The translations under genes were made by a program, and so were the position numbers. A stretch of DNA of 64,000 bases from Candidatus Dojkabacteria bacterium HGW-Dojkabacteria-1 (GTDB taxonomy: Bacteria > Patescibacteriota > Dojkabacteria > SC72). The notes below the pieces were generated by a model that saw only the letters and a program-made list of their open reading frames with translations, did not search any database and had not been told where the DNA came from. The stretch spans positions 168,647 to 232,646 of the forward strand of contig PHAO01000001.1 of the NCBI GenBank assembly GCA_002840365.1. Reading direction: 5' to 3'. Below, piece after piece: positions 13,533-34,884 of the stretch. Positions within the stretch are counted from its first letter, which is position 1. Every line of letters starts with the position of its first letter.

Positions 13533-14393
13533 ATGGAAAAGGGAAATATTACAAAACTTGTCCTCTTTGTAGATGTACAGCTTGCAATACTACTAGGTTT
13601 AGTAATATTCTTTGGTCTTTCAAATCTTAATACACAAAAAATTACAGACCAAGATGTACTTGGTGTAGATACTGCAGAGGCAAGTGGTGACTTCTCTGTA
13701 TCAGTTTGTTTAAGAGATGACTGTATATATATTCCTAATACTGCAGTAAGCAAAGAGGGAAGTATAGATGAGGGAATGGTATATCAAGAAGTTTTAGACA
13801 AAGTAGTATCACACTTTGAACGTACCTATGGTGGTAAATCTTTGGCAGCTAATGGTAATGGTTCCTTTGTATATTGGAAAGAGGATATTAGGCCTGATTT
13901 AACAAATATTTTCAAAGAGGTATATGTATCTTTTCTCTCTGGTTTAGATACAAATGTTGATATTGAAATGAAGGATATGCCAAGCACTGATGGTAAATAT
14001 GCAACTAAATATATTGAGGTAGATAACTCAAGACAAAAGTTGTATGTATGGCGAAATGGTCAGGTTGAAAGAGAGATCCTTCTGTCTGGTCCCAAAGAAG
14101 GGTATGAAGTATATGGAGTATTTCCAATCGTGGATAAAGGGTTGAATCCTAAAGCTCCAACAGGTTCATATATGCCATATTGGATGGCATTTCACTATGC
14201 AGGAGGACAGGAATCTTGGTATGGTCTACATGGACTAATATGGTGGTATGATTCTAATGGAAGAGCAATATATGAACCGGAGAGTAATATCGGTGTAAGA
14301 AGAAGTGGTGGGTGTATAAGGATGGTGGAGGAAGATGCCAAGTACTTGTATGAGAATTTTGACAAGGGAGATTTAATACTCATACATGAGTAA
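13533..14393 (+). CDS. L,D-transpeptidase (YkuD/ErfK family), membrane anchored
   Basis: N-terminal TM helix; catalytic block ...YGLHGL...GVRRSGGCIRM (His/Cys motif). Confidence 0.75.
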   Translation: MEKGNITKLVLFVDVQLAILLGLVIFFGLSNLNTQKITDQDVLGVDTAEASGDFSVSVCLRDDCIYIPNTAVSKEGSIDEGMVYQEVLDKVVSHFERTYGGKSLAANGNGSFVYWKEDIRPDLTNIFKEVYVSFLSGLDTNVDIEMKDMPSTDGKYATKYIEVDNSRQKLYVWRNGQVEREILLSGPKEGYEVYGVFPIVDKGLNPKAPTGSYMPYWMAFHYAGGQESWYGLHGLIWWYDSNGRAIYEPESNIGVRRSGGCIRMVEEDAKYLYENFDKGDLILIHE

Positions 14394-14464
14394 TACACAA
14401 AAACCTTTTTCTTTCCCCTTTGTATTGATATAATCGCAATATATTAAATTGTATTTTACTCCTC

Positions 14465-16015
14465 ATGGAAGAGTCCCAAAGAAGTGACTTAGTCGGACAA
14501 AGAAAAGTAAGATTAGAGAAAATAGAGAAACTTAAGAAGTTAGGTATAAATGCATATCCTGCAAAATCCAATAGGGAGTATGAAATAGGGAAAGTTTTAA
14601 ATGAATTTGATTCCTTTGATGGTAAGCAAGTATGTCTTGCTGGAAGAGTTATGGCATGGAGAACACATGGTAAATTACTCTTCTTAGATATTAAAGATCA
14701 AACTGGAACAATACAGGTCATGGTAAAGAAGGATTCTTTGGAGGGAGATTTAAAGAAGGAGTATTTAGATTGGGATAACTTAGAGCTTCTAGATTTAGCA
14801 GATTTTGTAGAAGTAGTGGGAGAGATTGGAAAAAGTAAAACAGGTCAAATTAGTATATTTACTAAAAAGATAAGGTTACTTACAAAATCTCTTCGCCCTA
14901 TTCCACGCAAATTAAATAGTAAAGAACAAATATTCAGAAGAAGATATCTAGATTTGATAATTAATGAAGATAGGGTAAGAATGTTTGAGAGAAAAGCAAA
15001 GTTCTGGGAAGTACAAAGAGAATTTCTTAAAAAAGAAGGCTTTATAGAAGTTGAAGTACCTATATTAGAGCCTGTAACAGGAGGGGCAGATGCTAAGCCA
15101 TTCATTACTCATCATAACGCTCTAGATCAAGATTTCTTCTTAAGAATCTCTACAGAGTTGTATCAGAAGAGATTAATAGGGGGAGGGTATGAGAAAGTAT
15201 ATACATTAGGACCAAACTTTAGAAACGAAGGAATGGATGACGAACATCTACAAGAGTATTATCAATTAGAGTGGTACTGGGCATATGCCAACTTTAGAGA
15301 CAATATGGATTTAGTTAAGAGAATATTTTTAGAGATTGCAGAGAAGGTATATGGAAATACTAAATTCACTACAAGAGGTCACACCTTTGATTTAGCAGAC
15401 GATTGGAAAGAAATAGATTACACACAGGTAATTAAAGATACTTTTGATGTAGATATCTTTAATGACAGTGATGAGAAGATATTAGAAGTTGTAAAGAAAA
15501 ACAATATTGAATTAGATGGGGATATTAACAGGAATAGGTTAATTGATAATCTATGGAAAGTTATTAGAGCAGGTATATCAGGACCAGCATTTTTAATTAA
15601 TCAACCAAAATTCATTTCTCCTTTAGCAAAATCTCATGCAGAGAATCCAGAATTAACAGAAAGATTTCAAGTTATCATAGCAGGAAGTGAACTAGGAAAT
15701 GGTTACTCCGAGATAAATGATCCAGTAGACCAATTAGAAAGATTCCTTGAACAACAAGATTTAAGAGACTCTGGAGATGATGAGGCACAAATGTTAGATA
15801 TAGACTTTGTAGAAATGTTGGAGTATGGTATGCCTCCTACAAGTGGATATGGTCAAAGTGAAAGAATATTCTGGTTTTTGGAAGATGTATCTGGTAGAGA
15901 AGGTACATTCTTCCCACAGATGAGAGTAGAAATTGATAGTACTACTAAAAAGGTTTACAAAGAGAAGTTGGCTAAATATCTCACACCAAAGAAAAAAGTA
16001 GTTTCTAAAAAGTAG
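14465..16015 (+). CDS. lysS: lysine--tRNA ligase (class II) with K-rich C-terminal tail
   Basis: OB-fold N-terminus, class II motifs (FRNEGMDDEHLQEYYQLEWYWAY, GGADAKPF); 516 aa. Confidence 0.9.
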   Translation: MEESQRSDLVGQRKVRLEKIEKLKKLGINAYPAKSNREYEIGKVLNEFDSFDGKQVCLAGRVMAWRTHGKLLFLDIKDQTGTIQVMVKKDSLEGDLKKEYLDWDNLELLDLADFVEVVGEIGKSKTGQISIFTKKIRLLTKSLRPIPRKLNSKEQIFRRRYLDLIINEDRVRMFERKAKFWEVQREFLKKEGFIEVEVPILEPVTGGADAKPFITHHNALDQDFFLRISTELYQKRLIGGGYEKVYTLGPNFRNEGMDDEHLQEYYQLEWYWAYANFRDNMDLVKRIFLEIAEKVYGNTKFTTRGHTFDLADDWKEIDYTQVIKDTFDVDIFNDSDEKILEVVKKNNIELDGDINRNRLIDNLWKVIRAGISGPAFLINQPKFISPLAKSHAENPELTERFQVIIAGSELGNGYSEINDPVDQLERFLEQQDLRDSGDDEAQMLDIDFVEMLEYGMPPTSGYGQSERIFWFLEDVSGREGTFFPQMRVEIDSTTKKVYKEKLAKYLTPKKKVVSKK

Positions 16016-16050
16016 ATCTTTCCTTGATATAAATTCTTTTTTGAGAATAG

Positions 16051-16410
16051 GTGGACTCTATCAAAGACATATTAAAAAATCTCAATCAAGAAGAAAAAGG
16101 AGACGAACCACAGGGTGAACTTTTTGATACATCATCTCTTTCCAAGAGAAAGGTAGTCATAAATGATAAGCATAAGTATATATCCAAGGAGTATCAATTC
16201 TATGGTTTGAGACTTGCAGGTAAGTTGGGGGACAGTAAAAGAGTAACTATGTATATTAAATGGGCAAAAGAAAAACCCAGAGCAATACTCGAGCAAGCGT
16301 ACAGTTTCGCTATTGATTACCCAAGTGCAAAAGATAGAAGTCGTATCTTTATGTGGAAAGTAAAAGAACTAGAGAATGAATACAAAGCTAAGAAGAAAGA
16401 GAACTCTTAA
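16051..16410 (+). CDS. hypothetical protein (119 aa, basic)
   Basis: No recognisable motif; 3' end overlaps nrnA 3' end. Confidence 0.45.
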   Translation: MDSIKDILKNLNQEEKGDEPQGELFDTSSLSKRKVVINDKHKYISKEYQFYGLRLAGKLGDSKRVTMYIKWAKEKPRAILEQAYSFAIDYPSAKDRSRIFMWKVKELENEYKAKKKENS

Positions 16411-26056: not shown

Positions 26057-26132
26057 CGGGGTGTAGTTCAGATGGCTAGAACGCTTGCATGGGGTGCAAG
26101 AGGTCGCACGTTCAAGTCGTGTCACCCCGACC
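26057..26132 (+). tRNA. tRNA-Pro (anticodon GGG), CCA encoded
   Basis: Acceptor cggggtg/caccccg with C1:G72 (bacterial tRNA-Pro hallmark), anticodon arm cttgc-aUGGGGu-gcaag (U33, G37), T-arm gcacg-ttcaagt-cgtgt, discriminator A + CCA. Confidence 0.8.
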
Positions 26133-26342
26133 AGTTAAGACGAGACCCTCCCGAAACATTGATACATAGGCATTATCAGCGTGATACATGCCATTTATCA
26201 AAATTATCCAGATTCTACTAAATCTGTATAAAGTCCCTTTGTACAAGCATAATCACCGTTCAAGTCCTGTCAGGTCTTTAGCTATATTCCGCTCGTAAAA
26301 ATCGATATCATTTTATTCATATTATTTTTTACTAATATTTAT

Positions 26343-26585
26343 ATGGATAAAATGGATTTAATAGATTCAGATGTAACACTGGATGAGTTATTTGAGTGGT
26401 TGAAGGATGAGATTGAAAAAGGGAATTTTCCACAGTTTCAGGATAAATCAGATGAAGAATTGCTTGAACTTGTTAAGGTTGCAAAGCCATTAATTGAGAT
26501 CGAGCTAAGGTTAGCCAATGCATTTGCATGGGAGCAGGTAAATTCGATTAAGAAAAAGGGTAAGATTCTTCAAAGAAAGGCATGA
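26343..26585 (+). CDS. hypothetical small acidic protein (80 aa), same strand as the OLD-family gene 66 bp downstream
   Basis: ORF only; acidic helical N-terminal part and basic tail (KKKGKILQRKA). Confidence 0.4.
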   Translation: MDKMDLIDSDVTLDELFEWLKDEIEKGNFPQFQDKSDEELLELVKVAKPLIEIELRLANAFAWEQVNSIKKKGKILQRKA

Positions 26586-26651
26586 TCAGTATTATTTTTT
26601 TACTGAAATTGCGAAATGGAATATAATTAACTATACATTGAAGAAAACTAT

Positions 26652-28394
26652 ATGAAGATAAAGAGCGTTACAATTGAGAATTTCCGTTGCTTCGATACCC
26701 CTTTGGTAGTCAACTTTGAGAACTATTCTGGGCTAGTCGGAAAGAATGGAACTGGAAAAACATCTGTATTAGAAGCCATCAACTTAGCTACTTCTCAATA
26801 TTACGTTAGTTCTCGTATAAATGAATCTGATTTTAATAACGAAGAGAATATAAGGATTATAGTAGAATTTGATAAGTGCTTTGTCATGCTCATTCCTGAT
26901 GGTTTTGCTTCCCAATATGTACCTTCAAATAGAATCTATCTAGCAATCTCACGAAGATCAAAGGCCGCTGCCGGTAAGGCTTTAAATGACGGATATACAA
27001 TTAATCATTTTGCAATCCCATATACATATTCAAGTAGCACAGAGCTATCTGATGTATTAGAAGATAGTATGCTAAATGGTCAAGAATCGTTGGATAAGCT
27101 CCCTAATTCAGTACTCCTTAATGGTGACGAAGATGAATACAAGTATAAGATCACCAGGAAGAGTGGTACGGTAAAATACGCAGATTCAAGAAGTCTACAA
27201 CTTTCGAATAACATGATTGGATTCCCAAATGTCTTTTATTTTGATAAAGATCGTGAAGGAGAAACAAGTAAGAAATTCAACAATCTTATGTCTAGGATTT
27301 TAGATGATCTGAATTGGAGATACCTTTCAAAAACAAGCGATGAGACTGAAATACTCCAGTCGGAGGAATCCGAAGGCGAGGCTGTTATGGGAACAGCTAT
27401 TCTAGAGCAACTAATTCTAGATGTATGGGAAGAATATTACAATAAGGTAATTGGTACTGTTGAGAAAGAAAAATCAAAGAGAATTATTTATCCCTTAAAG
27501 AAGAAAATGAAAGACTTCTGGGGTGAGATGTATGAGGATCTAGAACTATCAGTTCTTGATCTTACAAGTCCATTTTCTTCAGGATTCTTCTCTCTAAGGA
27601 AACAGAAGAAATCAAAGCAGATTAAAGTAAACAACTTAGGATCTGGAGAGTCAATGATATTAGCCTATTTCCTCTTGCAAACAATCAGTAAATTATCGAA
27701 AGAGAGGGTAATATATCTTATAGATGAGCCAGAAATGCACTTGCATCCACAGGCGCAGGTTAAGTTATTCGATGAGATACAGAAGTCCAAGAACCAGGTG
27801 ATTTATACAACGCATTCGGATATGTTCGTTGATATTGGGGCTTGGAAATCTATTTTAAGGTTTTCACCAGAAGAGGTCTACCCAACAGAAGAAATTCTGA
27901 ATGACAAGAGCATTGAGGATAAGGCCATTAGTGAGCATCTTGAGGAGATTAAACAGTTCCACCAAGATAAAACAATCTTTGTGAGGGAAAATAATGAAAT
28001 ATTCTTTGCCGATAAGTGTTTGCTAGTTGAAGGTCCTATAGATAAGTATGGAAATGCGATTCTTGCTAAGAAATTATCGAAGGAATTTCAAAACACAACG
28101 ATTGTTAGCTGTACTGGCAAGACAAAAATACTTTATTATGTTCTGCTATGTAAAGCCTTTGGTATCCCTTATTTTGTGATCTATGATCAAGACGAAGAGG
28201 GTAAATATACACTTCTTGAAGATAATTCTGATAATATAGAATCATACACAACATCATTCGAGAAGGTTTTTGAGCAAGGCGAAGAAGCAAGAAGAAACGA
28301 TATTCTTACATATATAATTAATCTTGATAAGGAGAACATTCCAGAGGAAGTTGTGAATATAATTCAAACTATAAGTACTTGGTCAGACGAATAA
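26652..28394 (+). CDS. OLD-family nuclease: single-chain ABC-type ATPase plus C-terminal TOPRIM domain (class-1 OLD / GajA-like)
   Basis: KIKSVTIENFRCF N-terminus; Walker A GKNGTGKTS (26739-26765); ABC-signature-like LGSGES; Walker B/H-loop VIYLIDEPEMHLHP (~27716-27752); TOPRIM Glu LLVEGPID (~28021-28044) and DxD IYDQDEEG (~28181-28204); 580 aa. Confidence 0.8.
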   Translation: MKIKSVTIENFRCFDTPLVVNFENYSGLVGKNGTGKTSVLEAINLATSQYYVSSRINESDFNNEENIRIIVEFDKCFVMLIPDGFASQYVPSNRIYLAISRRSKAAAGKALNDGYTINHFAIPYTYSSSTELSDVLEDSMLNGQESLDKLPNSVLLNGDEDEYKYKITRKSGTVKYADSRSLQLSNNMIGFPNVFYFDKDREGETSKKFNNLMSRILDDLNWRYLSKTSDETEILQSEESEGEAVMGTAILEQLILDVWEEYYNKVIGTVEKEKSKRIIYPLKKKMKDFWGEMYEDLELSVLDLTSPFSSGFFSLRKQKKSKQIKVNNLGSGESMILAYFLLQTISKLSKERVIYLIDEPEMHLHPQAQVKLFDEIQKSKNQVIYTTHSDMFVDIGAWKSILRFSPEEVYPTEEILNDKSIEDKAISEHLEEIKQFHQDKTIFVRENNEIFFADKCLLVEGPIDKYGNAILAKKLSKEFQNTTIVSCTGKTKILYYVLLCKAFGIPYFVIYDQDEEGKYTLLEDNSDNIESYTTSFEKVFEQGEEARRNDILTYIINLDKENIPEEVVNIIQTISTWSDE

Positions 28395-28401
28395 ACTGAT
28401 A

Positions 28402-29556
28402 TTACTTGGGATTAATAATAGTGACTATATTAAGGTTATCCTTACTCATACTGTTTAAATCATTCTCCAATCCTGCAGGGTTACCGATCCTGCCTTCTGG
28501 ATCATAGATAAAACAAATCAAATTTTTACAATCAGGGTGTTTCGAATATCTAGCGATATCAATGATAATCTGTTCTCCAATTTCCTTATCTTCCAAGCCC
28601 TTCCTTGTCTTCTTCACCTCTATAACGGTTTCAATTTCCTTTATCAAGAAATCACTTCGGGATGAGCTTCCTGCGTAGCTTGGGTTCCACTCCTCTTTGC
28701 GAACATCCTCAAATTTTATGTGCAATAACGCATATAATAAATCTTGTACGTCATATTCATCTTCTACCTGAATTGTATCCCGACCGTCATAACGATCCTT
28801 AACTTTTCTAGCAAATCTATGGAAGCCGTTGCACAAATCGAGAACATCCTGTATTTCAGATGTTCTTCCCGTACCCTGCTTAAAATACTTTGACTTGATA
28901 TCAATTTGTTTCAATACGTTACGTGACAAGCGTATTAGCTCCAACATTTTACTAGCTAATAATGTAGTAGAGAGCAGTTCTGAATGGAACTGTATGTGTG
29001 GTGGAACTTTGAATCCTTCAGAAACGGCTCTAGAATCTCTTGATATAGCATTTGAGGGCTGCTGGTATCTGATAAGATCTCTCGTTTGATGGTGTAATTC
29101 CAGATCTTCAATCTTCTTTAGCTCAGCCTGTTGAGTTGAATACTCGTCACTGTCTTTGATAAATGCAAGAGTATTAACAATATCATCTCTAAGTTTCTTA
29201 GCACTTTCAGCAATTTGATTTATCTTGCCACAAAGATCATCTATTTCTTTCAGCTTGTGACTTTCTCCGATCTTACTCTTTACGTCCTCATATGTTTTTT
29301 CGTTCCATCCTGCGGGTATTCCATGATAACCTGCTCCTCCCCATTCAATGTTAAATTTACTTCCAGGAGGTGGTTTCTGAAAATCGCTAAAATATAGGTA
29401 AGCATGGTATCCTAACCAGGAGCCACTCCAAGATTCCTCTAATTTGCTAACGACATCGGCGACATCATCTATCTCCTTAGAATATTTCTTTATATCTGAA
29501 CTATTCTCCTTGTCGAATTTATCTATTTTTTTCTTGAGTTCTTCTAGTTCTTTCAT
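28402..29556 (-). CDS. hypothetical protein: N-terminal alpha-helical domain of unknown family plus C-terminal PD-(D/E)xK nuclease-like domain
   Basis: C-terminal ...EDEYDVQDLLYALLHIKFEDV...SSSRSDFLIKEIETVIEVKK...GEQIIIDIARY fits the E...hhD...ExK...Q..Y pattern of restriction-endonuclease-fold nucleases (motif DNA ~28605-28670). Convergent with the OLD gene (3' ends 8 bp apart); co-directional with the TA pair upstream. Confidence 0.5.
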   Translation of the reverse strand: MKELEELKKKIDKFDKENSSDIKKYSKEIDDVADVVSKLEESWSGSWLGYHAYLYFSDFQKPPPGSKFNIEWGGAGYHGIPAGWNEKTYEDVKSKIGESHKLKEIDDLCGKINQIAESAKKLRDDIVNTLAFIKDSDEYSTQQAELKKIEDLELHHQTRDLIRYQQPSNAISRDSRAVSEGFKVPPHIQFHSELLSTTLLASKMLELIRLSRNVLKQIDIKSKYFKQGTGRTSEIQDVLDLCNGFHRFARKVKDRYDGRDTIQVEDEYDVQDLLYALLHIKFEDVRKEEWNPSYAGSSSRSDFLIKEIETVIEVKKTRKGLEDKEIGEQIIIDIARYSKHPDCKNLICFIYDPEGRIGNPAGLENDLNSMSKDNLNIVTIINPK

Positions 29557-29622
29557 ATGGTAATTATATTAAACCGTAATACATTTGTCGTTTATAAAGT
29601 AATTAGTTGATCTCTTATACTA

Positions 29623-29997
29623 TCAAAGAAATGTTTTGTAGTAGTATTCTAACCTTTCTTTATCTTCATTAGCCTTGTTTCCTTTGTAATATATTTCAAC
29701 CAAAATCACTTTTATATCTTTCTTGATGAAAATATAAATAAGTCTAAGACCTGATTTTGCCCCCTTTCCTTTGAATGATTTTGAAGCGAATTTCTTGACT
29801 TTGCACGAAATAATATCGTCATTGCTGAAGCCCGGTATTGGAAATATTGAATTGTTATCAATGCTGTTGAGATGATATAGACTTATAGCAGCCTTTTTAA
29901 CCACTTCTAAGTCTTCAGGAAGCGTTTTATACTTCTTGCAAAGTTTTTTTAGGTCTTTGTCAAATTCAGATGTTGTTTCAAAGCTAATTTTCCCCAT
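29623..29997 (-). CDS. RelE/YafQ-superfamily type II toxin-like protein
   Basis: 124 aa. FDKDLKKLCKKYKTLPEDLEVVKKAAISL...GLRLIYIFIKKDIKVILVEIYYKG matches the RelE/YafQ/Gp49 layout. Overlaps the upstream HTH-Panacea gene by 14 nt. Confidence 0.55.
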   Translation of the reverse strand: MGKISFETTSEFDKDLKKLCKKYKTLPEDLEVVKKAAISLYHLNSIDNNSIFPIPGFSNDDIISCKVKKFASKSFKGKGAKSGLRLIYIFIKKDIKVILVEIYYKGNKANEDKERLEYYYKTFL

Positions 29998-30766
29998 AAT
30001 TTCTCACTGATGTCTTAGGTGTTCGATAAAATACAGTTTCGTAATCAATGGGTTTCGTGTCTTCGGTAACAATCCAAGGAACATCTTGATGAGAATATTC
30101 GCTTAGCTCACTTGCATTTTTATCTGATAATCTTGCAAGAACTTCATCTATATGACGTAATTCTTGTGCGCTAAGAAGTTTTGATAAATCGGGTTCCCTT
30201 ACAGCTAAATATTTTTTTTGGTCATAGTTAAAGTATTTATTTTTCACTATAACTAACTCTTCTTTTGCAACCATTTCCTCAACAAGCTTTTTAAATTCAA
30301 CCGGTGTTGGTCCATGATGATTTTTTATATATGTTGCTCCTATGAGTTGCTCTTCGTATTTTTCGTAGTAATCAAAATCAATAAAATAAAGTAACTTGTA
30401 TAGTACTGTTTCACCGACATTTGGTTTGGCACCTGCCTTGGTCAGAATATATAAGAAAATTTCACGAAATTTATTGAAATTTTTCTGAGGGATACTAATC
30501 CTTAGATTTTCCTCTTGGTTATCGTTATTGTTCTTCATCTTTTCTATGATATCAATCTTAATCCTATCAACAGGCTTTTGGTTAAGTAGGTCATCGATTG
30601 ACATATTTAACAATTTCGCAAGTTTCTGTAGTTCAGTAAGTGAGAGATCTCTAGTCCCTTGCTCAATATTTATATACGTTGGGCGAGATATCCCTAATTT
30701 CTGGGCAACATAATTTTGGGAGTAATTTAATTTCTCTCTTTGTTTTTGTATATATTTTCCAATCAT
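29984..30766 (-). CDS. XRE-family HTH plus Panacea (DUF4065/SocA-like) domain protein, putative antitoxin
   Basis: N-terminal Cro/C1 HTH (LNYSQNYVAQKLGISRPTYINIEQGTRDLSLTELQKLAKLL). Central VLYKLLYFIDFDYYEKYEEQLIGATYIKNHHGPTPVEF matches the Panacea LxKLLYxxD...GPv core (DNA ~30290-30420). Confidence 0.65.
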   Translation of the reverse strand: MIGKYIQKQREKLNYSQNYVAQKLGISRPTYINIEQGTRDLSLTELQKLAKLLNMSIDDLLNQKPVDRIKIDIIEKMKNNNDNQEENLRISIPQKNFNKFREIFLYILTKAGAKPNVGETVLYKLLYFIDFDYYEKYEEQLIGATYIKNHHGPTPVEFKKLVEEMVAKEELVIVKNKYFNYDQKKYLAVREPDLSKLLSAQELRHIDEVLARLSDKNASELSEYSHQDVPWIVTEDTKPIDYETVFYRTPKTSVRNYGEN

Positions 30767-30791
30767 AGTATTTTGGCAGTTAAATTAAATA

Positions 30792-30932
30792 CTATTTAGT
30801 TCTTTTTTTTCTTTTTTCTCTTTGTGACAACGCACTTCCTGCGACAGATTTTGTTTTTTTTGTGGTTCTCTTATTTCTAAGCAGTGAAGATGCTTTCTTT
30901 GCAACTTTCTTACTGGTTACTTTTCTAGCCAT
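30792..30932 (-). CDS. very small, extremely basic ORF (46 aa: MARKVTSKKVAKKASSLLRNKRTTKKTKSVAGSALSQREKRKKRTK) immediately upstream of the HTH-Panacea gene; speculative
   Basis: Found by hand translation (below the ORF-track size cutoff). A sigma70-like -35/-10 (TTGACA ...15 nt... TATAAT on minus strand, plus coords 30951-30977) lies just upstream. No RBS. Confidence 0.2.
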   Translation of the reverse strand: MARKVTSKKVAKKASSLLRNKRTTKKTKSVAGSALSQREKRKKRTK

Positions 30933-31243
30933 ATCTATGATTCAAATAAAATTATATTTAGATTTTACCGGTGTCAAATATATTTGTCAATACATATGTA
31001 AAGAATGTTGACTTTCATTTATACTTATATGTTTAAATAAGGAAGCTCAAAAAGGAACTTCCACTTATACTCAAACTCTTTAACAAATGAAATAATGCTA
31101 TCAATGAAAGGGAGAATCCGTTCGTACATAGTACGATCACCCCGACCATTTCCATTACTAAGGGTCTAGGAATATATTTCACAATGTTTTGTATCTTTGA
31201 TATTGTAGAACTTGTCTTCTCTTAATTTCAGTACTACCAGAAT

Positions 31244-31426
31244 ATGAAAAAAGACTTCAATGACAAAGTTTTAGAATACCTTTTAATATTTTCCATATGT
31301 TTTGTATTAATTACTCTCTTCTTTGTTCTTTTTGATTTAAACAAGGGAGTAGAGAGTGTGAAGGGTGTTATGAAAAGAGTAGTGTTAAATATCGAAGGAA
31401 CAAAAAGTTCAGAAGAAGGAATATAG
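31244..31426 (+). CDS. hypothetical small membrane protein (60 aa)
   Basis: Single TM helix; ORF only. Confidence 0.3.
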   Translation: MKKDFNDKVLEYLLIFSICFVLITLFFVLFDLNKGVESVKGVMKRVVLNIEGTKSSEEGI

Positions 31427-31442
31427 GTGATATAATTGGGGC

Positions 31443-32069
31443 ATGTCAGATTTACAAGATCCAATACAATCACAACTTTGGGATAGGGTTCAAGAAATAA
31501 AAAGAGATGTTTACGAGGGAAAGACTAACTCCCCAGAAGAAAGGGCTATTGCTTGGAGAGTAGCAGAAAGTGAAGGAGATAGTTTTGTTGTAGAGAAAAT
31601 AAAGGGGGATGTACGTTTGCCAAAAGATAGGTTTGAGTTGGCTGATAAGTTTCTTTCAGAAGCAAAAGAAACCGAAGATGAACTAGCACAGGAGGGTATT
31701 GAATTAAGACCTGTTTCTAGAGACACAAAAGAGTACATGATAGAGGGTTTATTAATGGGTATTACTGAGTATAAGGAAAATAATAATCCTCATGAATTAG
31801 CACATAGACTTTCTACTATTCTAAGTATTGTTTCTCGAGCTGCAGAAGGAGTAGGTTTTGGCAACTATGCTAGCGATTATGGTGATTTAGGTGCTACATA
31901 TCTCTCAAAGAGACAAGTGAAAGAGCTTTGTGAACAAGTAAACTTTATAGCACTCTTTGGTTTTGTACATGTTATGAACAAAGGTTCTGAAGAAAATATT
32001 TCTGTGTATGAGGAACAAAAAGCAACTCTTAAAGCAATAAACTCTGTTTCTGAGAGTATAGTTTTGTAA
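31443..32069 (+). CDS. hypothetical protein (208 aa), composition slightly GC-richer than backbone
   Basis: No recognised motif; clean ORF ending at a long hairpin. Confidence 0.5.
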   Translation: MSDLQDPIQSQLWDRVQEIKRDVYEGKTNSPEERAIAWRVAESEGDSFVVEKIKGDVRLPKDRFELADKFLSEAKETEDELAQEGIELRPVSRDTKEYMIEGLLMGITEYKENNNPHELAHRLSTILSIVSRAAEGVGFGNYASDYGDLGATYLSKRQVKELCEQVNFIALFGFVHVMNKGSEENISVYEEQKATLKAINSVSESIVL

Positions 32070-32092
32070 GAAATTTCATTTGTAAATATGTT

Positions 32093-32160
32093 GTTGACTC
32101 CCACCCCTTGTTTTGTCTTCTACCTAGATTCAGGTAAACAAGAGGTGGGAGTGTCTGACA
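32093..32160. terminator. long inverted repeat (~15-bp stem, ~25-nt loop) between convergent genes; bidirectional terminator candidate
   Basis: gactcccaccccttgtt ... aacaagaggtgggagtgtc. Confidence 0.5.
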
Positions 32161-32184
32161 ACACACCGATAGGTTAATTAGGCT

Positions 32185-33099
32185 CTACGGGGCTAATAAC
32201 TGGAATGGTGGGGTGAACGAGTCACATCCAACGGGGTCAATAGTGTACCCTTTTCCAGCTAAGTCCTTGGGGACATTTCTCATGGTCTCGAACGACTTGC
32301 CACCGTAGCCATAGGCTTCGGGGCCTGACGGACCAAATTGCCACCAACTAAGGTTCCCGCGAGGGATCCCCGTTGCACTGTAATTTGTACCAGCCCATAC
32401 TAAATATCGGAGAACTTGATTCCCACTCTTAAGTGCATAGCATACCACTTTCTTAATGGGGTCTTGCTCGTTAGGATCTGGCGGCCACCGGTTTTTCAAG
32501 TCAGCAAACACCTGTGTTGCTACATTCGAGCTTCCTGCAACAACGGTATGTGCTTCCTTGTGTTCTGGGCTTACCGGTATATACCCTAGCACTGATGCCC
32601 ATAAGGCCAAGGCGGCACTCAGGTCCATTGGATTATCGTAATATATTGCACCAACAGGTACATTTGCAGTATATACGACATACCCAACGGTTAGGGTTCC
32701 CCAGACAATAAGGGCCAAGACATCGGCTGGACCAGGGGCAGGACTATCCATTACACCAACGGCAGCACCGATGGGCATGACAGCGATTCCTGCTTCTTGC
32801 CAGTTGATGGGCTTGTATAGATAGTACACTTGCAGTCCATCAACGTCTTCTTGCAGTGTTGGGGGAGTTTGAATCCTAACAGGAGTGGGAGTAGTAATAA
32901 CCTTCCCTTCACTTGTAGTTATCGATCCCCCCGCAGGAACAATTGTTGCCTCGGCACTTGCCTGTGCTAGAGGCTGGTTTGAACTATCCGGAATTGCAAC
33001 AGGTTGCGCAACCGGTTGAGTATTCACCCCAGAGGGTGGCGTCGAGCAAGCAGCAAGCATTGCAACGACAAGGACATAAACTACCAGCTTTCTAAACAT
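32185..33099 (-). CDS. lipoprotein of foreign origin (GC ~50% vs ~33% backbone), hypothetical
   Basis: Signal peptide plus lipobox LAACS, a Pro/Thr/Gln-rich linker, then a globular C-terminal domain. Codon usage is strongly GC3-rich, unlike all neighbours. Confidence 0.65.
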   Translation of the reverse strand: MFRKLVVYVLVVAMLAACSTPPSGVNTQPVAQPVAIPDSSNQPLAQASAEATIVPAGGSITTSEGKVITTPTPVRIQTPPTLQEDVDGLQVYYLYKPINWQEAGIAVMPIGAAVGVMDSPAPGPADVLALIVWGTLTVGYVVYTANVPVGAIYYDNPMDLSAALALWASVLGYIPVSPEHKEAHTVVAGSSNVATQVFADLKNRWPPDPNEQDPIKKVVCYALKSGNQVLRYLVWAGTNYSATGIPRGNLSWWQFGPSGPEAYGYGGKSFETMRNVPKDLAGKGYTIDPVGCDSFTPPFQLLAP

Positions 33100-33364
33100 G
33101 GATACTCCTTATTTGAACGATAGTGTGTGTTGTCAAAGAACAGAAATCATTATACTATAGGTTGGTACGATTCTCAATTGTTAATATATCTAAATATCTA
33201 TAGTTTTGAATACTCTTCTATCAGCTTATAGTCCTAAGTGCTAAATTAGAATTTCGCCTTGTTAAAGGTTTGTAGTTGATATCAATGAATCAATATAGCT
33301 TATCTATAACTTAAAAATGCTAGGAATATACACTTAATGTATATATCATATAGTTATAAATAAA

Positions 33365-33787
33365 TTGTCATGTATTACTAATATGACAAACAAAGAAAGA
33401 GTAGTTATGCTCTCAATTTTCATTTCAGTATTTGGGTTTTCGCTTTTTAATGCCTTTAATCCTTTACAACAGGAAGTAGGTGTACCTAAGTTTGTTGTAG
33501 CATCAGAATATATCACTAAAGTACCTCTTTCAGAAGAAGAGTATGTATATGATTACAATTTTGATGTAGATAGGCAGTACAGTAGATTTGATTCAAACAA
33601 ATCTAAGATGGTTAATATGTTAAGTATTACACTGGGAATACCAACGGATGAAGTACAGGAAGCATTGGATGGAGGAGTAAGGCCAGGCGAGATGTTAGCA
33701 AGTAATGGTATTTTACTTTCTGACTTAGCTGAGGATTTCAACTTTGAAATCATTGGTGAAAGAGGATTAGTAAGGTTTCTTAGTTGA
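33365..33787 (+). CDS. hypothetical membrane-anchored protein (140 aa)
   Basis: N-terminal TM helix; no motif. Confidence 0.45.
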   Translation: MSCITNMTNKERVVMLSIFISVFGFSLFNAFNPLQQEVGVPKFVVASEYITKVPLSEEEYVYDYNFDVDRQYSRFDSNKSKMVNMLSITLGIPTDEVQEALDGGVRPGEMLASNGILLSDLAEDFNFEIIGERGLVRFLS

Positions 33788-33848
33788 GTAAATTAGTGAT
33801 ATTTGGTATAAATAGAGAGTAATAACGCCTTGCGTCATACGACGAATT

Positions 33849-33878
33849 AAAACCGGCCAACTAGGTCGGTTTTTTGTT
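33849..33878 (+). terminator. rho-independent terminator after 33365..33787
   Basis: aaccggcc-aacta-ggtcggtt followed by TTTTT. Confidence 0.55.
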
Positions 33879-33897
33879 AAATCGACCAACAACCTTT

Positions 33898-34027
33898 GTA
33901 CTAGTGAATCGCTAGTACGAAGTACTAAAGAAAAGACGTTTTCTTTAGTCAAACAACTGGTCGGGCAGTGTGAAGGTAACTTCCACTGATATGGAATACG
34001 TAGCAAGAACGGATTCCATTTCCCGAC
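33898..34027 (+). promoter_or_regulatory. candidate structured leader RNA upstream of the ferredoxin gene: two perfect hairpins plus a three-stem junction
   Basis: H1 gtactag-tgaatcg-ctagtac (33898-33918). H2 actaaagaaaa-gacg-ttttctttagt (33924-33949, 11 bp perfect). 3-way junction 33960-34027: P1 gtcggg/cccgac; P2 cagtg-u-gaag-GUAA-cttc-cactg (GNRA loop); P3 uggaau-15 nt-auucca. Confidence 0.3.
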
Positions 34028-34085
34028 GGTTGATATATTCTCTGATTTTTGAAAAAATGGGATATATAAATTAAGAAACTAGAAT

Positions 34086-34289
34086 ATGAAAGTTTCAATA
34101 GACCCAACAAAGTGTATCGCATGTGGTTCATGTGTCGCTATCTGTCCTGAAGTATTTGAAATGAAAGAGGATGGAACCGTAGATGTGAAATCAGAGTGGA
34201 AGGGAAAGGATATTCCTGAAGAATTAAGAGCAAAGGTTATAGAAGCACATGATATGTGTCCTGTAACTGCCATCGTTATTGAAGATTAA
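34086..34289 (+). CDS. small [4Fe-4S]/[3Fe-4S] ferredoxin
   Basis: CIACGSCVAICP ... DMCPV cysteine pattern; 67 aa. Confidence 0.8.
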   Translation: MKVSIDPTKCIACGSCVAICPEVFEMKEDGTVDVKSEWKGKDIPEELRAKVIEAHDMCPVTAIVIED

Positions 34290-34293
34290 ATAT

Positions 34294-34884
34294 ATGTCTA
34301 AACATCAAGAGAAGATTCTCTGTATACAAAGTGACAAGCTTTTTTCGCTTGGGAAGTGGAATGGTCTTCAGACAGAGAATTTAGATAAATATCTAGAGAT
34401 TCTGAAAGAAGAAAGTGAATTCAGAGTAAGGGCCGAATTAGAAGAAGACCCTTCATACAAGCAGGTTATTGCACAGGTAGTACTTAGATACAAAGACAAG
34501 TACTTTTTACACAAACAGGTAAACAGAACAGAAGAAAGACTAAACTCTCTTTGTCCACTACCACTGGGAGGACATATAGAGGAGTTTGATATTGTAAAAG
34601 GTAAGGATATTTTTGAGATAGCGTTGGATAGGGAATTACATGAAGAAGCTGATGTTAAGTCTAAAATTGTTAAGAAAGATTTTCTTGGTCTTGTATATAT
34701 TGAGGATGAAAATCCTGTTAACCATGTTCATGTAGGATTGTTCTACATATATGATTTAGATGGTAGCGATGTACATATTAGAGAAGAGGGTTTAGAAGAT
34801 ATTGGGTTTGTAAGTTTAGAATATCTTAAAACTAACAAAGAGACTTTAACCTTTTGGAGTAGAGTAGTAATATATCATCTTTAA
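34294..34884 (+). CDS. Nudix hydrolase-like protein (start taken at MSKHQEK; ORF track starts at 34279)
   Basis: Nudix-box-like GGHIEEFDIVKGKDIFEIALDRELHEEADV (Gx5Ex7REUxEExGU with G to D substitution). Confidence 0.5.
   Translation: MSKHQEKILCIQSDKLFSLGKWNGLQTENLDKYLEILKEESEFRVRAELEEDPSYKQVIAQVVLRYKDKYFLHKQVNRTEERLNSLCPLPLGGHIEEFDIVKGKDIFEIALDRELHEEADVKSKIVKKDFLGLVYIEDENPVNHVHVGLFYIYDLDGSDVHIREEGLEDIGFVSLEYLKTNKETLTFWSRVVIYHL

Follow-up and report, generated by a model that had tools for sequence, protein, structure and literature searches.

The accessory stretch behind tRNA-Pro(GGG) in a Dojkabacteria genome: a probable CIME-like integrated element beside an older module with a hypervariable lipoprotein gene

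Introduction

Cis-mobilizable elements (CIMEs) and the tandem accretion of elements at tRNA genes have been described for the ICE (integrative and conjugative element) and IME (integrative and mobilizable element) families in Streptococcus (PMC5704250). An RNA gene, that of the tmRNA, is likewise the target of the ssrA-specific genomic islands of Dehalococcoides (PMC3146451). Here we describe an accessory stretch that directly follows a tRNA-Pro(GGG) gene in Candidatus Dojkabacteria bacterium HGW-Dojkabacteria-1, a member of the candidate phyla radiation (CPR). Its left 5 kb resembles an integrated element of this kind, and its right part is a resident module with a hypervariable lipoprotein gene. 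The DNA analysed is a stretch of 64 kb from contig PHAO01000001.1, hereafter the window, to which all coordinates refer. A 547-kb metagenome contig also contains it, and the encoded proteins are identical to those of HGW-Dojkabacteria-1.

Several genes of the left part have characterised counterparts. Class 1 of the OLD nuclease family includes P2 Old and the OLD protein of Thermus scotoductus (PMC7049728), and phage defence by a Class 1 OLD has been shown in Vibrio cholerae (PMC12392090). A long-B Argonaute activates EcbAgaN, an autoinhibited nuclease of the PD-(D/E)xK type whose motif is D298/E309/V310/K311 (PMC13535254, PMC10620215). In the PanA–PanT scheme of toxin–antitoxin systems, antitoxins with helix-turn-helix (HTH) extensions and toxin partners of the ParE superfamily have been reported (PMC8832971).

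Results

Organization of the locus and comparison with relatives

The window served as the reference, and its accessory stretch was compared with relatives that are labelled L0xx. The comparative set was obtained by scanning one genome per species with the HD protein, which returned 31 Dojkabacteria loci. The tRNA-Pro(GGG) gene that the initial annotation had placed at the start of the islet was confirmed at 26057–26133 on the plus strand by ARAGORN and by Rfam (tRNA, 58.5 bits); the Rfam score comes from a sensitive run, the gene having been missed through a filter artefact in the default gathering run on the whole window. This tRNA gene, the presumed target of integration, is kept near the HD gene in 30 of the 31 relatives, in most of them directly after it. 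To its left the order common to the relatives is g190, DUF3048, g338, in some cases HAD, and HD; to the right of the variable interval it is o140 (not in all), ferredoxin, Nudix, HIT, hydrolase and DsbA, so that the ferredoxin, Nudix and HIT genes do resume after the islet as first described.

Between these syntenic flanks, the interval that follows the tRNA ranges from 272 nt to about 10 kb in 30 Dojkabacteria loci and differs in cargo. The shortest intervals correspond to empty sites, of 272 nt in L008 and L009 and of 290 nt in L024. Nucleotide homology with nearly all relatives ends on the left at 26130–26136, which is the 3′ end of the tRNA, and restarts on the right at 33128 (L015), 33150 (L004 and L005) or 33258–33360 (others). 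These limits define an accessory stretch from 26134 to approximately 33130, or about 7.0 kb. The stretch had initially been put at about 7.8 kb; its accessory character stands, and the length is reduced because o140 (140 aa, 33365–33787), which is conserved beside ferredoxin in about 12 relatives, belongs to the core. The conserved right flank, consisting of the o140 upstream region and gene, accordingly occupies 33128–33787 on the plus strand.

Comparison of the segment between tRNA-Pro and ferredoxin revealed presence/absence variation, and across the 30 loci the content of the islet is not conserved in distant relatives. The closest relative, L003, whose HD gene is 96% identical, lacks 26134 to approximately 31200. 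The cargo of the relatives is mixed and includes methyltransferases, cytochrome b5, ABC/MacB transporters, glutamine synthetase, an epimerase, RuBisCO, a queuosine salvage protein and HigB-type toxin–antitoxin pairs. The site is a hotspot of general plasticity rather than an island dedicated to defence: the hotspot proposed in the initial annotation is borne out, its restriction to defence is not.

Direct repeats, conserved arms and empty sites

The left part of the accessory stretch, 26134–31148 (5,015 bp), is bounded by a 12-bp direct repeat, TCACCCCGACCA. The first copy (26122–26133, attL) forms the last 12 nt of the tRNA and the second, identical to the tRNA 3′ end, lies at 31137–31148 on the plus strand (attR). 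Exactly two copies occur in the 64-kb window, a number that none of 100 shuffled sequences reached (0/100 with at least two), and 12 nt is the longest word common to the attL and attR regions.

Inside the repeats, the element carries two conserved arms, of about 200 and 115 nt, that recur elsewhere. The left arm, or P′ arm (26134–26342, ~200 nt), contains an invariant motif, CGTTCAAGTCCTGT, at 26255–26268 and can be aligned with what comes after the core in L033, L025, L061, L062 and L056. In the first two of these it stands after the tRNA, and in the other three after the cores that adjoin P arms. A T-arm-like motif at 26258–26272 was considered as a remnant of an old att site and rejected; it belongs to the P′ arm, in which it is invariant, and so does not represent a scar of its own.

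For the right arm, or P arm (31025–31136, minus strand), the span given here starts at the stop codon of orf34 at 31025; an nhmmer profile delimits the arm as ~112 nt from 31034. A noncoding block of about 105 nt (31041–31148) is 94% identical to L033, as against only 77% for the HD gene at the DNA level. The P arm is also present in L025 and L030. A pattern scan of metagenomes found it at 14 further loci (15 matches), to which nhmmer added one for a total of 16 copies there, and the similarity among all P-arm copies stops exactly after CCCCGA. Altogether, P and P′ arms occur in about 20 copies with unrelated cargo, including tandem copies in L061 and L065, and the junctions are 330-nt units of P, core and P′. 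A structured RNA in the P arm was rejected on the basis of single-sequence folds (z = −1.1 and −0.6) and an RNAalifold covariation term of approximately 0. It is more likely that the P arm is a recombination arm combined with a micro-ORF.

Unoccupied or differently occupied sites show where the element begins and ends. In L003 the tRNA core is followed by eight differing bases and then by the sequence that stands after attR in the window, from 31153 on. The bases CTCCTA, which are the first six behind the tRNA core of L017, and an 88-aa open reading frame (ORF) close downstream in that genome are found again after the second P arm of L061, the two 88-aa ORFs being 100% identical. Moreover, L033, L030 and L061 have an attL with CCA and an attR with the native, non-CCA trinucleotide, as expected if an attP containing CCCCGACCA had crossed over within the core. 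Three of the features by which tRNA islands are recognised are found here: insertion at the 3′ end with the tRNA left intact, direct repeats derived from the tRNA, and a precise empty site (L003, and L017 compared with L061).

The small ORFs of the backbone

Next to the arms lie small ORFs that appear to form the backbone of the element. The 80-aa orphan o80 (26343–26585, plus strand) directly follows the P′ arm, and copies in the same position are 89% identical in L033 and 83% identical in L061. It had no match in Pfam, PADLOC, NCBIfam or PHROG, and 18 cluster representatives were found among 1.84 billion proteins. Within the P arm, orf34 (31025–31129, minus strand) is a probable 34-aa micro-ORF, as judged from variation by codon position: third positions vary at 0.112, compared with 0.052 for first and 0.073 for second positions (~2-fold and ~1.5-fold). 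Stop codons interrupt it in 2 of 17 copies. A membrane micro-ORF of 46–50 aa, orf48, is present in most copies of the family and absent from the window.

A further candidate, the 46-aa Lys/Arg-rich o46 (30792–30932, minus strand) upstream of the antitoxin gene described below, was called in the source contigs and is a doubtful gene; its counterpart in L030 is interrupted after ~16 codons. A sigma70-like promoter consensus is matched at 11 of 12 positions at 30990–30962 on the minus strand. Consensus promoter matches invite the speculation that orf34 and orf48 would be transcribed, from a leftward P′-arm promoter, solely in the joined state of P and P′, whether circular or tandem.

The integrase and the element family

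No recombinase domain was found by Pfam among the called genes of the 64-kb window, and a six-frame phmmer search of the window with lambda Int, XerC and a serine recombinase returned no match, in agreement with the initial annotation, which had listed no integrase. Six complete elements (window, L033, L025, L030, L061 element 2 and L065) lack a recombinase, and scans for an integrase in the cargo of relatives, covering ~50 ORFs singly by Pfam and 112 in the family census, showed metabolic and defence genes only. After these Pfam scans, the six-frame phmmer search located an integrase in L056. There, the core and P′ arm are followed directly by a 270-aa tyrosine recombinase (PF00589 Phage_integrase, 9.4e-43) with its R-K-H-R-H-Y residues intact. 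The L056 element ends 8.5 kb further on with orf48, a P arm and the second core, and only two cores are present in that locus. The position of its integrase is the one that o80 occupies in the window, L033 and L061.

From these comparisons we conclude that 26134–31148 is probably a non-autonomous integrative element. It would belong to a family that inserts at tRNA-Pro by means of a tyrosine recombinase, and it is CIME-like under the definition given in PMC5704250. Lacking an integrase, the window copy could be moved only by an integrase acting in trans or within a larger tandem.

An integron was considered and rejected: g338, HAD and HD stand upstream of the tRNA without intI, and the junctions are of the P-core-P′ type, not attC hairpins. 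An integron-type integrase was also sought in g338, which is a lipoprotein without recombinase signal.

Other family members and users of the site offer some additional observations. Defence-type cargo is found in L061 (1836–11212), L059 (1384–3157), L058 (5707–7997) and L064 (5918–8860); examples are type III restriction-modification genes accompanied by a HerA-like ATPase, a SMODS cyclase, a NucS/DUF5655 nuclease with DUF2130, and a PHP-SMC ATPase. These modules are common to several loci at 93–100% identity and occur in varying combinations. In L055 (460–1698), a P-arm core is directly followed, on the opposite strand, by the gene of a large serine recombinase that is truncated and has Resolvase, Recombinase and Zn-ribbon domains, which suggests that a different type of element also uses the site.

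The OLD-family nuclease

The first large cargo gene (26652–28394, plus strand) encodes a stand-alone, Class-1-like OLD-family nuclease of 580 aa, an assignment already made in the initial annotation and upheld by Pfam and PADLOC. AAA_15 (1.4e-32, residues 1–393) and OLD-like_TOPRIM (1.1e-13, residues 451–514) are found in a single chain, and the best PADLOC model is 'Old' (2.2e-35). The best solved relative is the OLD-family endonuclease 6p74 (6.3e-26 over residues 257–514), which we take to be the T. scotoductus protein. Neither a helicase (UvrD/PcrA, the Class 2 partner), nor a retron reverse transcriptase (Class 3), nor an AriB gene (Class 4) adjoins the OLD gene, whose neighbours are o80 and a convergent gene with a restriction endonuclease domain. 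With no such partner, the protein fits Class 1 as defined in PMC7049728. The gene is a singleton among the cargo of the relatives.

The bAgaN-like nuclease

The convergent neighbour (28402–29556, minus strand) encodes a stand-alone bAgaN-like nuclease of 384 aa, with a match to the Pfam family PF18742 (DpnII-MboI restriction endonuclease, 1.5e-54). Its N-terminal ~235 aa form a predicted helical domain, and a PD-(D/E)xK domain with the motif D301...E312-V-K314 lies at the C-terminus; D301, E312 and K314 are invariant in 38 homologues. PADLOC returned Aga_Helical-REase at 6.5e-32, and a sequence search of the PDB matched EcbAgaN (23wq, 3.8e-4) in the C-terminal nuclease domain only; outside that domain, neither search gave a match to bAgaN. 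The AlphaFold2 model has a mean confidence (pLDDT) of 87 and a predicted helical N-terminal domain. A Foldseek search with this model gave no match at E <= 0.001 among PDB entries to April 2026, a set that may or may not include 23wq; this entry is missing from the output.

The family counts more than 3286 full-length homologues of ~385 aa from many phyla, the best being 46% identical; among the relatives of the window the gene is a singleton. No Argonaute is present among the called genes of the window, nor beside three homologues of the nuclease. These three adjoin, respectively, a serine recombinase, an AIPR gene and a type I restriction subunit, so no conserved partner emerges. The protein is probably a stand-alone effector nuclease that is autoinhibited by its helical domain, by analogy with the characterised bAgaN.

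A type II restriction-modification system of the DpnII/MboI kind was considered and rejected, there being no methylase in the 26–34 kb region. In the window as a whole, GATC is the most under-represented 4-bp palindrome (120 observed versus 218 expected, a ratio of 0.55), and 120 sites remain despite this depletion.

The toxin–antitoxin pair

Further along the minus strand lie a gene for an Xre-type HTH and Panacea/SocA antitoxin (PanA, 29984–30766; SocA_Panacea PF13274 1e-17 and HTH_3 2.4e-16 by Pfam) and, overlapping it by 14 nt, a gene for a 124-aa protein with the RelE/HigB2 fold, the putative PanT (29623–29997). The toxin was assigned by profile and by fold. Its profile matches HigB-2 structures at 1.5e-4, and its AlphaFold2 model has a pLDDT of 87.9. 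The top 50 Foldseek matches in the PDB are RelE, HigB, YafQ, YoeB and related members of the RelE/ParE superfamily, except for one ribosome-bound Cami1 chain, with template modelling scores up to 0.70 on the target. Some homologues have been named RelE or YafQ by JGI.

The pair is 85–87% identical in L030, in which the HD gene is only 61% identical, and is also present in L071. In L030 it abuts the tRNA directly and has no nuclease gene beside it. A pair that is so much closer than the HD gene, and that occurs without the nuclease, is indicative of a mobile two-gene unit. The initial annotation had joined HTH-Panacea, RelE-like and PD-(D/E)xK genes into one three-gene unit. All three genes are present on the minus strand, and the gene content of relatives together with the contexts of nuclease homologues rules out the larger unit in favour of a two-gene pair and an independent nuclease.

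The cargo of the left element has a GC content at third codon positions (GC3) of 0.33–0.35, which is 3–4 standard deviations (SD) above the background of 0.25 ± 0.023 and reads as a foreign signature.

The resident module and the lipoprotein gene

Beyond the direct repeats, from 31149 to approximately 33130, the right part of the islet is made up of an older module that is resident at the locus. It begins with o60, which encodes a small membrane protein, and o208 (together 31244–32069, plus strand). Homologues of both stand at the same position in L015 (42–52% amino acid identity), L071 and L073, and in these three genomes the entire module of o60, o208 and lipoprotein gene recurs there.

The lipoprotein gene (32185–33099, minus strand) encodes 304 aa with a signal peptide and a lipobox ending in ...MLAAC. 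Its high GC content, first given as ~52% in a genome of ~33%, was confirmed at 50.2% compared with 33.2% for the window, the GC content rising to 0.50 across 32250–33000. The GC3 of 0.44 is ~8 SD above background, which indicates that the high GC content does not merely reflect a composition rich in Ala, Pro and Gly. Ten homologues were found among 5.8 billion proteins.

The comparison with L071 is particularly informative. The two sequences are 99–100% identical over 29621–32120 and 33121–34330, and across the intervening segment that holds the lipoprotein gene (32121–33120) they are 56–68% identical. As the divergence is confined to this gene, whole alleles have been exchanged between near-identical strains. 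GC3 among the alleles ranges from 0.27 (L015) to 0.47 (L071). The lipoprotein is a locus-resident hypervariable surface protein and not a one-off foreign import, as the initial annotation had supposed. An origin in another phylum was rejected, every homologue with readable context being located at this Dojkabacteria locus, and mutagenesis of the diversity-generating retroelement type was rejected as well, there being no reverse transcriptase or template repeat and the divergence spanning the whole gene. It is possible that the high GC3 stems from a donor pool of higher GC content or from GC-biased gene conversion.

Other observations at the locus and in the window

The flanks of the hotspot are themselves interrupted in certain genomes. 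A second insertion point lies upstream of the tRNA, between HD and tRNA-Pro, in L012, L023, L027, L030 and L031. The insert is a pair of ORFs of ~98 and ~108 aa, 49–87% identical among those genomes and absent from the window. The pair probably corresponds to the Gp49/HigB-like (four ORFs) and HTH_3 (six ORFs) families of the cargo census, a correspondence at the level of families and not of individual proteins. On the right, L006 carries a 2.2-kb insertion (13931–16142) between o140 and ferredoxin with a GT2 glycosyltransferase and a 218-aa ORF, which means that this flank too is interrupted now and then.

The spacer between o140 and ferredoxin (33788–34085) is strongly structured, as had been noticed, with a minimum free energy of −92 kcal/mol compared with −59 ± 5 for shuffled sequences (z = −6.6); the description of it as GC-rich is not sustained at a GC content of ~37%. 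Its length is ~290–325 nt in eight relatives. The conserved, noncoding element itself (33880–34040) has a consensus of two hairpins and a three-way junction with 49 pairs, in which 98% of cells are paired. Nine pairs show compensatory changes, compared with 4.0 ± 1.4 in shuffles (0/500 reach nine). No Rfam match was obtained at E <= 1, and the element is a candidate Dojkabacteria-specific noncoding RNA or leader of the ferredoxin gene (fdx).

Elsewhere in the window, Rfam identifies a class A RNase P RNA at 455–755 (160.8 bits). Among viral contigs, the IMG/VR entries L077–L083 are phage contigs (GC content ~0.40–0.43) with tRNA arrays, and their tRNA-Pro(TGG) matches the Dojkabacteria tRNA-Pro(GGG) letter for letter in the T-arm and acceptor 3′ end. 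These phages may infect this lineage.

Discussion

We regard it as probable that the accessory DNA after tRNA-Pro(GGG) sits in a lineage-wide variable hotspot and is built of two layers, an integrated element and an older resident module. In the first layer (26134–31148), site-specific integration would have placed the element behind the tRNA gene, at its 3′ end, through strand exchange within the common core TCACCCCGA by a tyrosine recombinase such as that of L056. The exchange would have regenerated the tRNA at attL and left the 12-bp copy at attR. The window copy has kept its arms and, like a CIME, would depend for movement on an integrase acting in trans or on inclusion in a larger tandem. 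As for the cargo, which comprises three self-contained conflict modules, the OLD nuclease would be driven by ATP, PanA would bind and neutralise an mRNA-cleaving toxin and repress its own operon, and the most likely role of the OLD protein, the bAgaN-like nuclease and the toxin–antitoxin pair together would be defence against phages and plasmids and stabilisation of the element. In the second layer (31149 to ~33130), lipoprotein alleles would be swapped by homologous recombination in the identical flanks. The anatomy, the repeats, the patterns of presence and absence, the assignments of domains and folds and the swap of alleles are observed, and the action of a recombinase, movement in trans, the part played in defence and the activity of the toxin are inferred.

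The islet is composite rather than a single insertion. The suggestion of an old or degraded insertion made at the outset essentially holds for the left 5 kb, which have attL, attR and the arms but no integrase, one being present in a related element, and does not extend to the islet as a single event. Overall, this is a genomic island of a classical kind in an unusual, CPR lineage.

Several points weigh against the two-layer explanation. The match to the empty site of L003 is imperfect, as the eight nucleotides after the attR core of the window (CCATTTCC) differ from those of L003 (TTATGTTA); the mismatch is located at 31137–31160 of the window and at 1715–1745 of L003. It may be the scar of an earlier integration or the result of a crossover beyond the core. 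On the minus strand, the core (GGGGTGA) is also a plausible ribosome-binding site of orf34, which could contribute to its conservation. L030 has the toxin–antitoxin module and a P arm without a P′ arm, so the element of the window may be a fusion of two units. L056 is the sole integrase-bearing member found. Mobility is suggested by comparisons alone, neither an excised circle nor an empty site in the same population having been seen. Lastly, the cargo of the hotspot in relatives is mainly metabolic, and the defence role of every cargo gene in the window is predicted from homology alone.

Of the alternatives, homologous recombination survives best, although we consider it unlikely to account for the locus by itself. 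Cargo would then be swapped through the conserved flanks (HD and tRNA on one side, o140 and ferredoxin on the other), for instance following the uptake of DNA, with no site-specific step, and the repeat would owe its conservation to being the ribosome-binding site of orf34. The core on the minus strand does resemble a Shine-Dalgarno sequence, 9 nt ahead of the orf34 ATG, searches of the window and of the six complete elements gave no integrase, and the swap of lipoprotein alleles shows that homologous replacement takes place at this locus. Such a process does not, however, explain breakpoints that in numerous independent genomes coincide precisely with the tRNA 3′ end or the core, the exchange of CCA between attL and attR that strand exchange predicts, tandem arrays with intact P-core-P′ junctions, or the integrase beside an arm in L056.

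It is very improbable that the segment is ancestral, a decaying vertical remnant deleted in those relatives that lack it. The module of o60, o208 and lipoprotein gene, which several related genomes have in the same place, would suit such a history, whereas the OLD and bAgaN-like genes are singletons among relatives, the toxin–antitoxin pair is 85–87% identical to that of a distant genome with core genes at 61%, the GC3 of the cargo stands 3–4 SD above background, and the direct repeats and arms are met again at other sites, where they flank unrelated cargo.

A prophage remnant or phage satellite at the tRNA has marginally less in its favour still. The 3′ ends of tRNA genes are classical prophage sites and P2 encodes Old, but the islet contains no structural, replication or packaging genes and matches no PHROG family of known function. 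Furthermore, the P arm, the P′ motif, o80 and the L056 integrase found no match in 2.9 million viral contigs, and the tRNA 3′ end that some viral contigs do share belongs there to phage tRNA arrays with tRNA-Pro(TGG). The least credible alternative, a chimera of assembly or binning suggested by the abrupt GC jump from 33% to 50%, can be dismissed for practical purposes, since the same arrangement appears on five contigs and in the NCBI assembly of HGW-Dojkabacteria-1, and the independent assemblies L071, L015 and L073 have homologous genes at the same position.

Within the two-layer explanation, a bolder extension is conceivable, to which we attach rather low confidence. The arms together with o80, orf34 and orf48 could represent a dedicated lineage of miniature, integrase-less cassettes that are moved in trans by a small XerC-like integrase and stacked in tandem at tRNA-Pro. 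If true, this would amount to an integron-like platform with which genome-reduced CPR bacteria capture and shuffle accessory and defence genes.

The genomes of CPR bacteria are tiny, with few mobile elements or defence systems recognised in them, and the locus shows accessory genes being acquired and exchanged in such an organism. About 20 related elements use a single tRNA-Pro site, with interchangeable cargo that includes restriction-modification, a SMODS-domain gene of the cyclic-oligonucleotide-based antiphage signalling (CBASS) type, OLD, toxin–antitoxin pairs and metabolic enzymes. A concrete att site with a candidate integrase might serve as a genetic tool in organisms that now have none. 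The stand-alone bAgaN-like family, with more than 3000 members, raises the question of how such nucleases are activated without Argonaute. The surface lipoprotein, of which entire alleles are replaced among strains that are identical elsewhere, may help to determine interactions with hosts or phages.

The individual cargo genes compare with described systems to differing degrees. The OLD protein of the window has the N-terminal ABC ATPase and C-terminal TOPRIM domain of Class 1 and no partner gene; its similarity to 6p74 is moderate (E = 6e-26), and its activity is predicted. The 384-aa nuclease resembles the bAgaN of the BPAN system (PMC10620215, PMC13535254) in size (~385–390 aa) and in its C-terminal PD-(D/E)xK domain with a D-EVK motif. 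It differs from bAgaN in having no Argonaute gene nearby, in a similarity that is detectable in the nuclease domain only, and in that its homologues stand alone beside unrelated defence or mobile genes. In line with PanA–PanT (PMC8832971), a gene for an HTH and Panacea antitoxin immediately precedes a small toxin gene and overlaps it; the two genes lie within 100 nt of each other and are conserved as a unit across genomes of at least two species. As a point of difference, this toxin belongs to a family without a Pfam model and is only remotely HigB2-like, and its neutralisation by PanA is putative.

At the level of the element, the ssrA islands of Dehalococcoides (PMC3146451) provide a parallel in their small genomes, single RNA-gene target and strain-specific acquired cargo. 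A parallel in structure exists with CIMEs, in that the element of the window lies at a tRNA 3′ end, has kept attL and attR and has apparently lost its integration genes, and in that related elements stack in tandem at the regenerated site (PMC5704250). In contrast to the CIMEs, ICEs and IMEs of Streptococcus, no family member seen here has conjugation or relaxase genes, and the host is a CPR bacterium. The Dehalococcoides islands reportedly lie in tandem between direct repeats of the 3′ end of their target and each has its own integrase, whereas most copies of the present family have none. Finally, the integrase-less copies differ from CIMEs in possessing a conserved backbone of micro-ORFs (o80, orf34 and orf48), which points to the maintenance of a non-autonomous lineage and not to the decay of each copy on its own.

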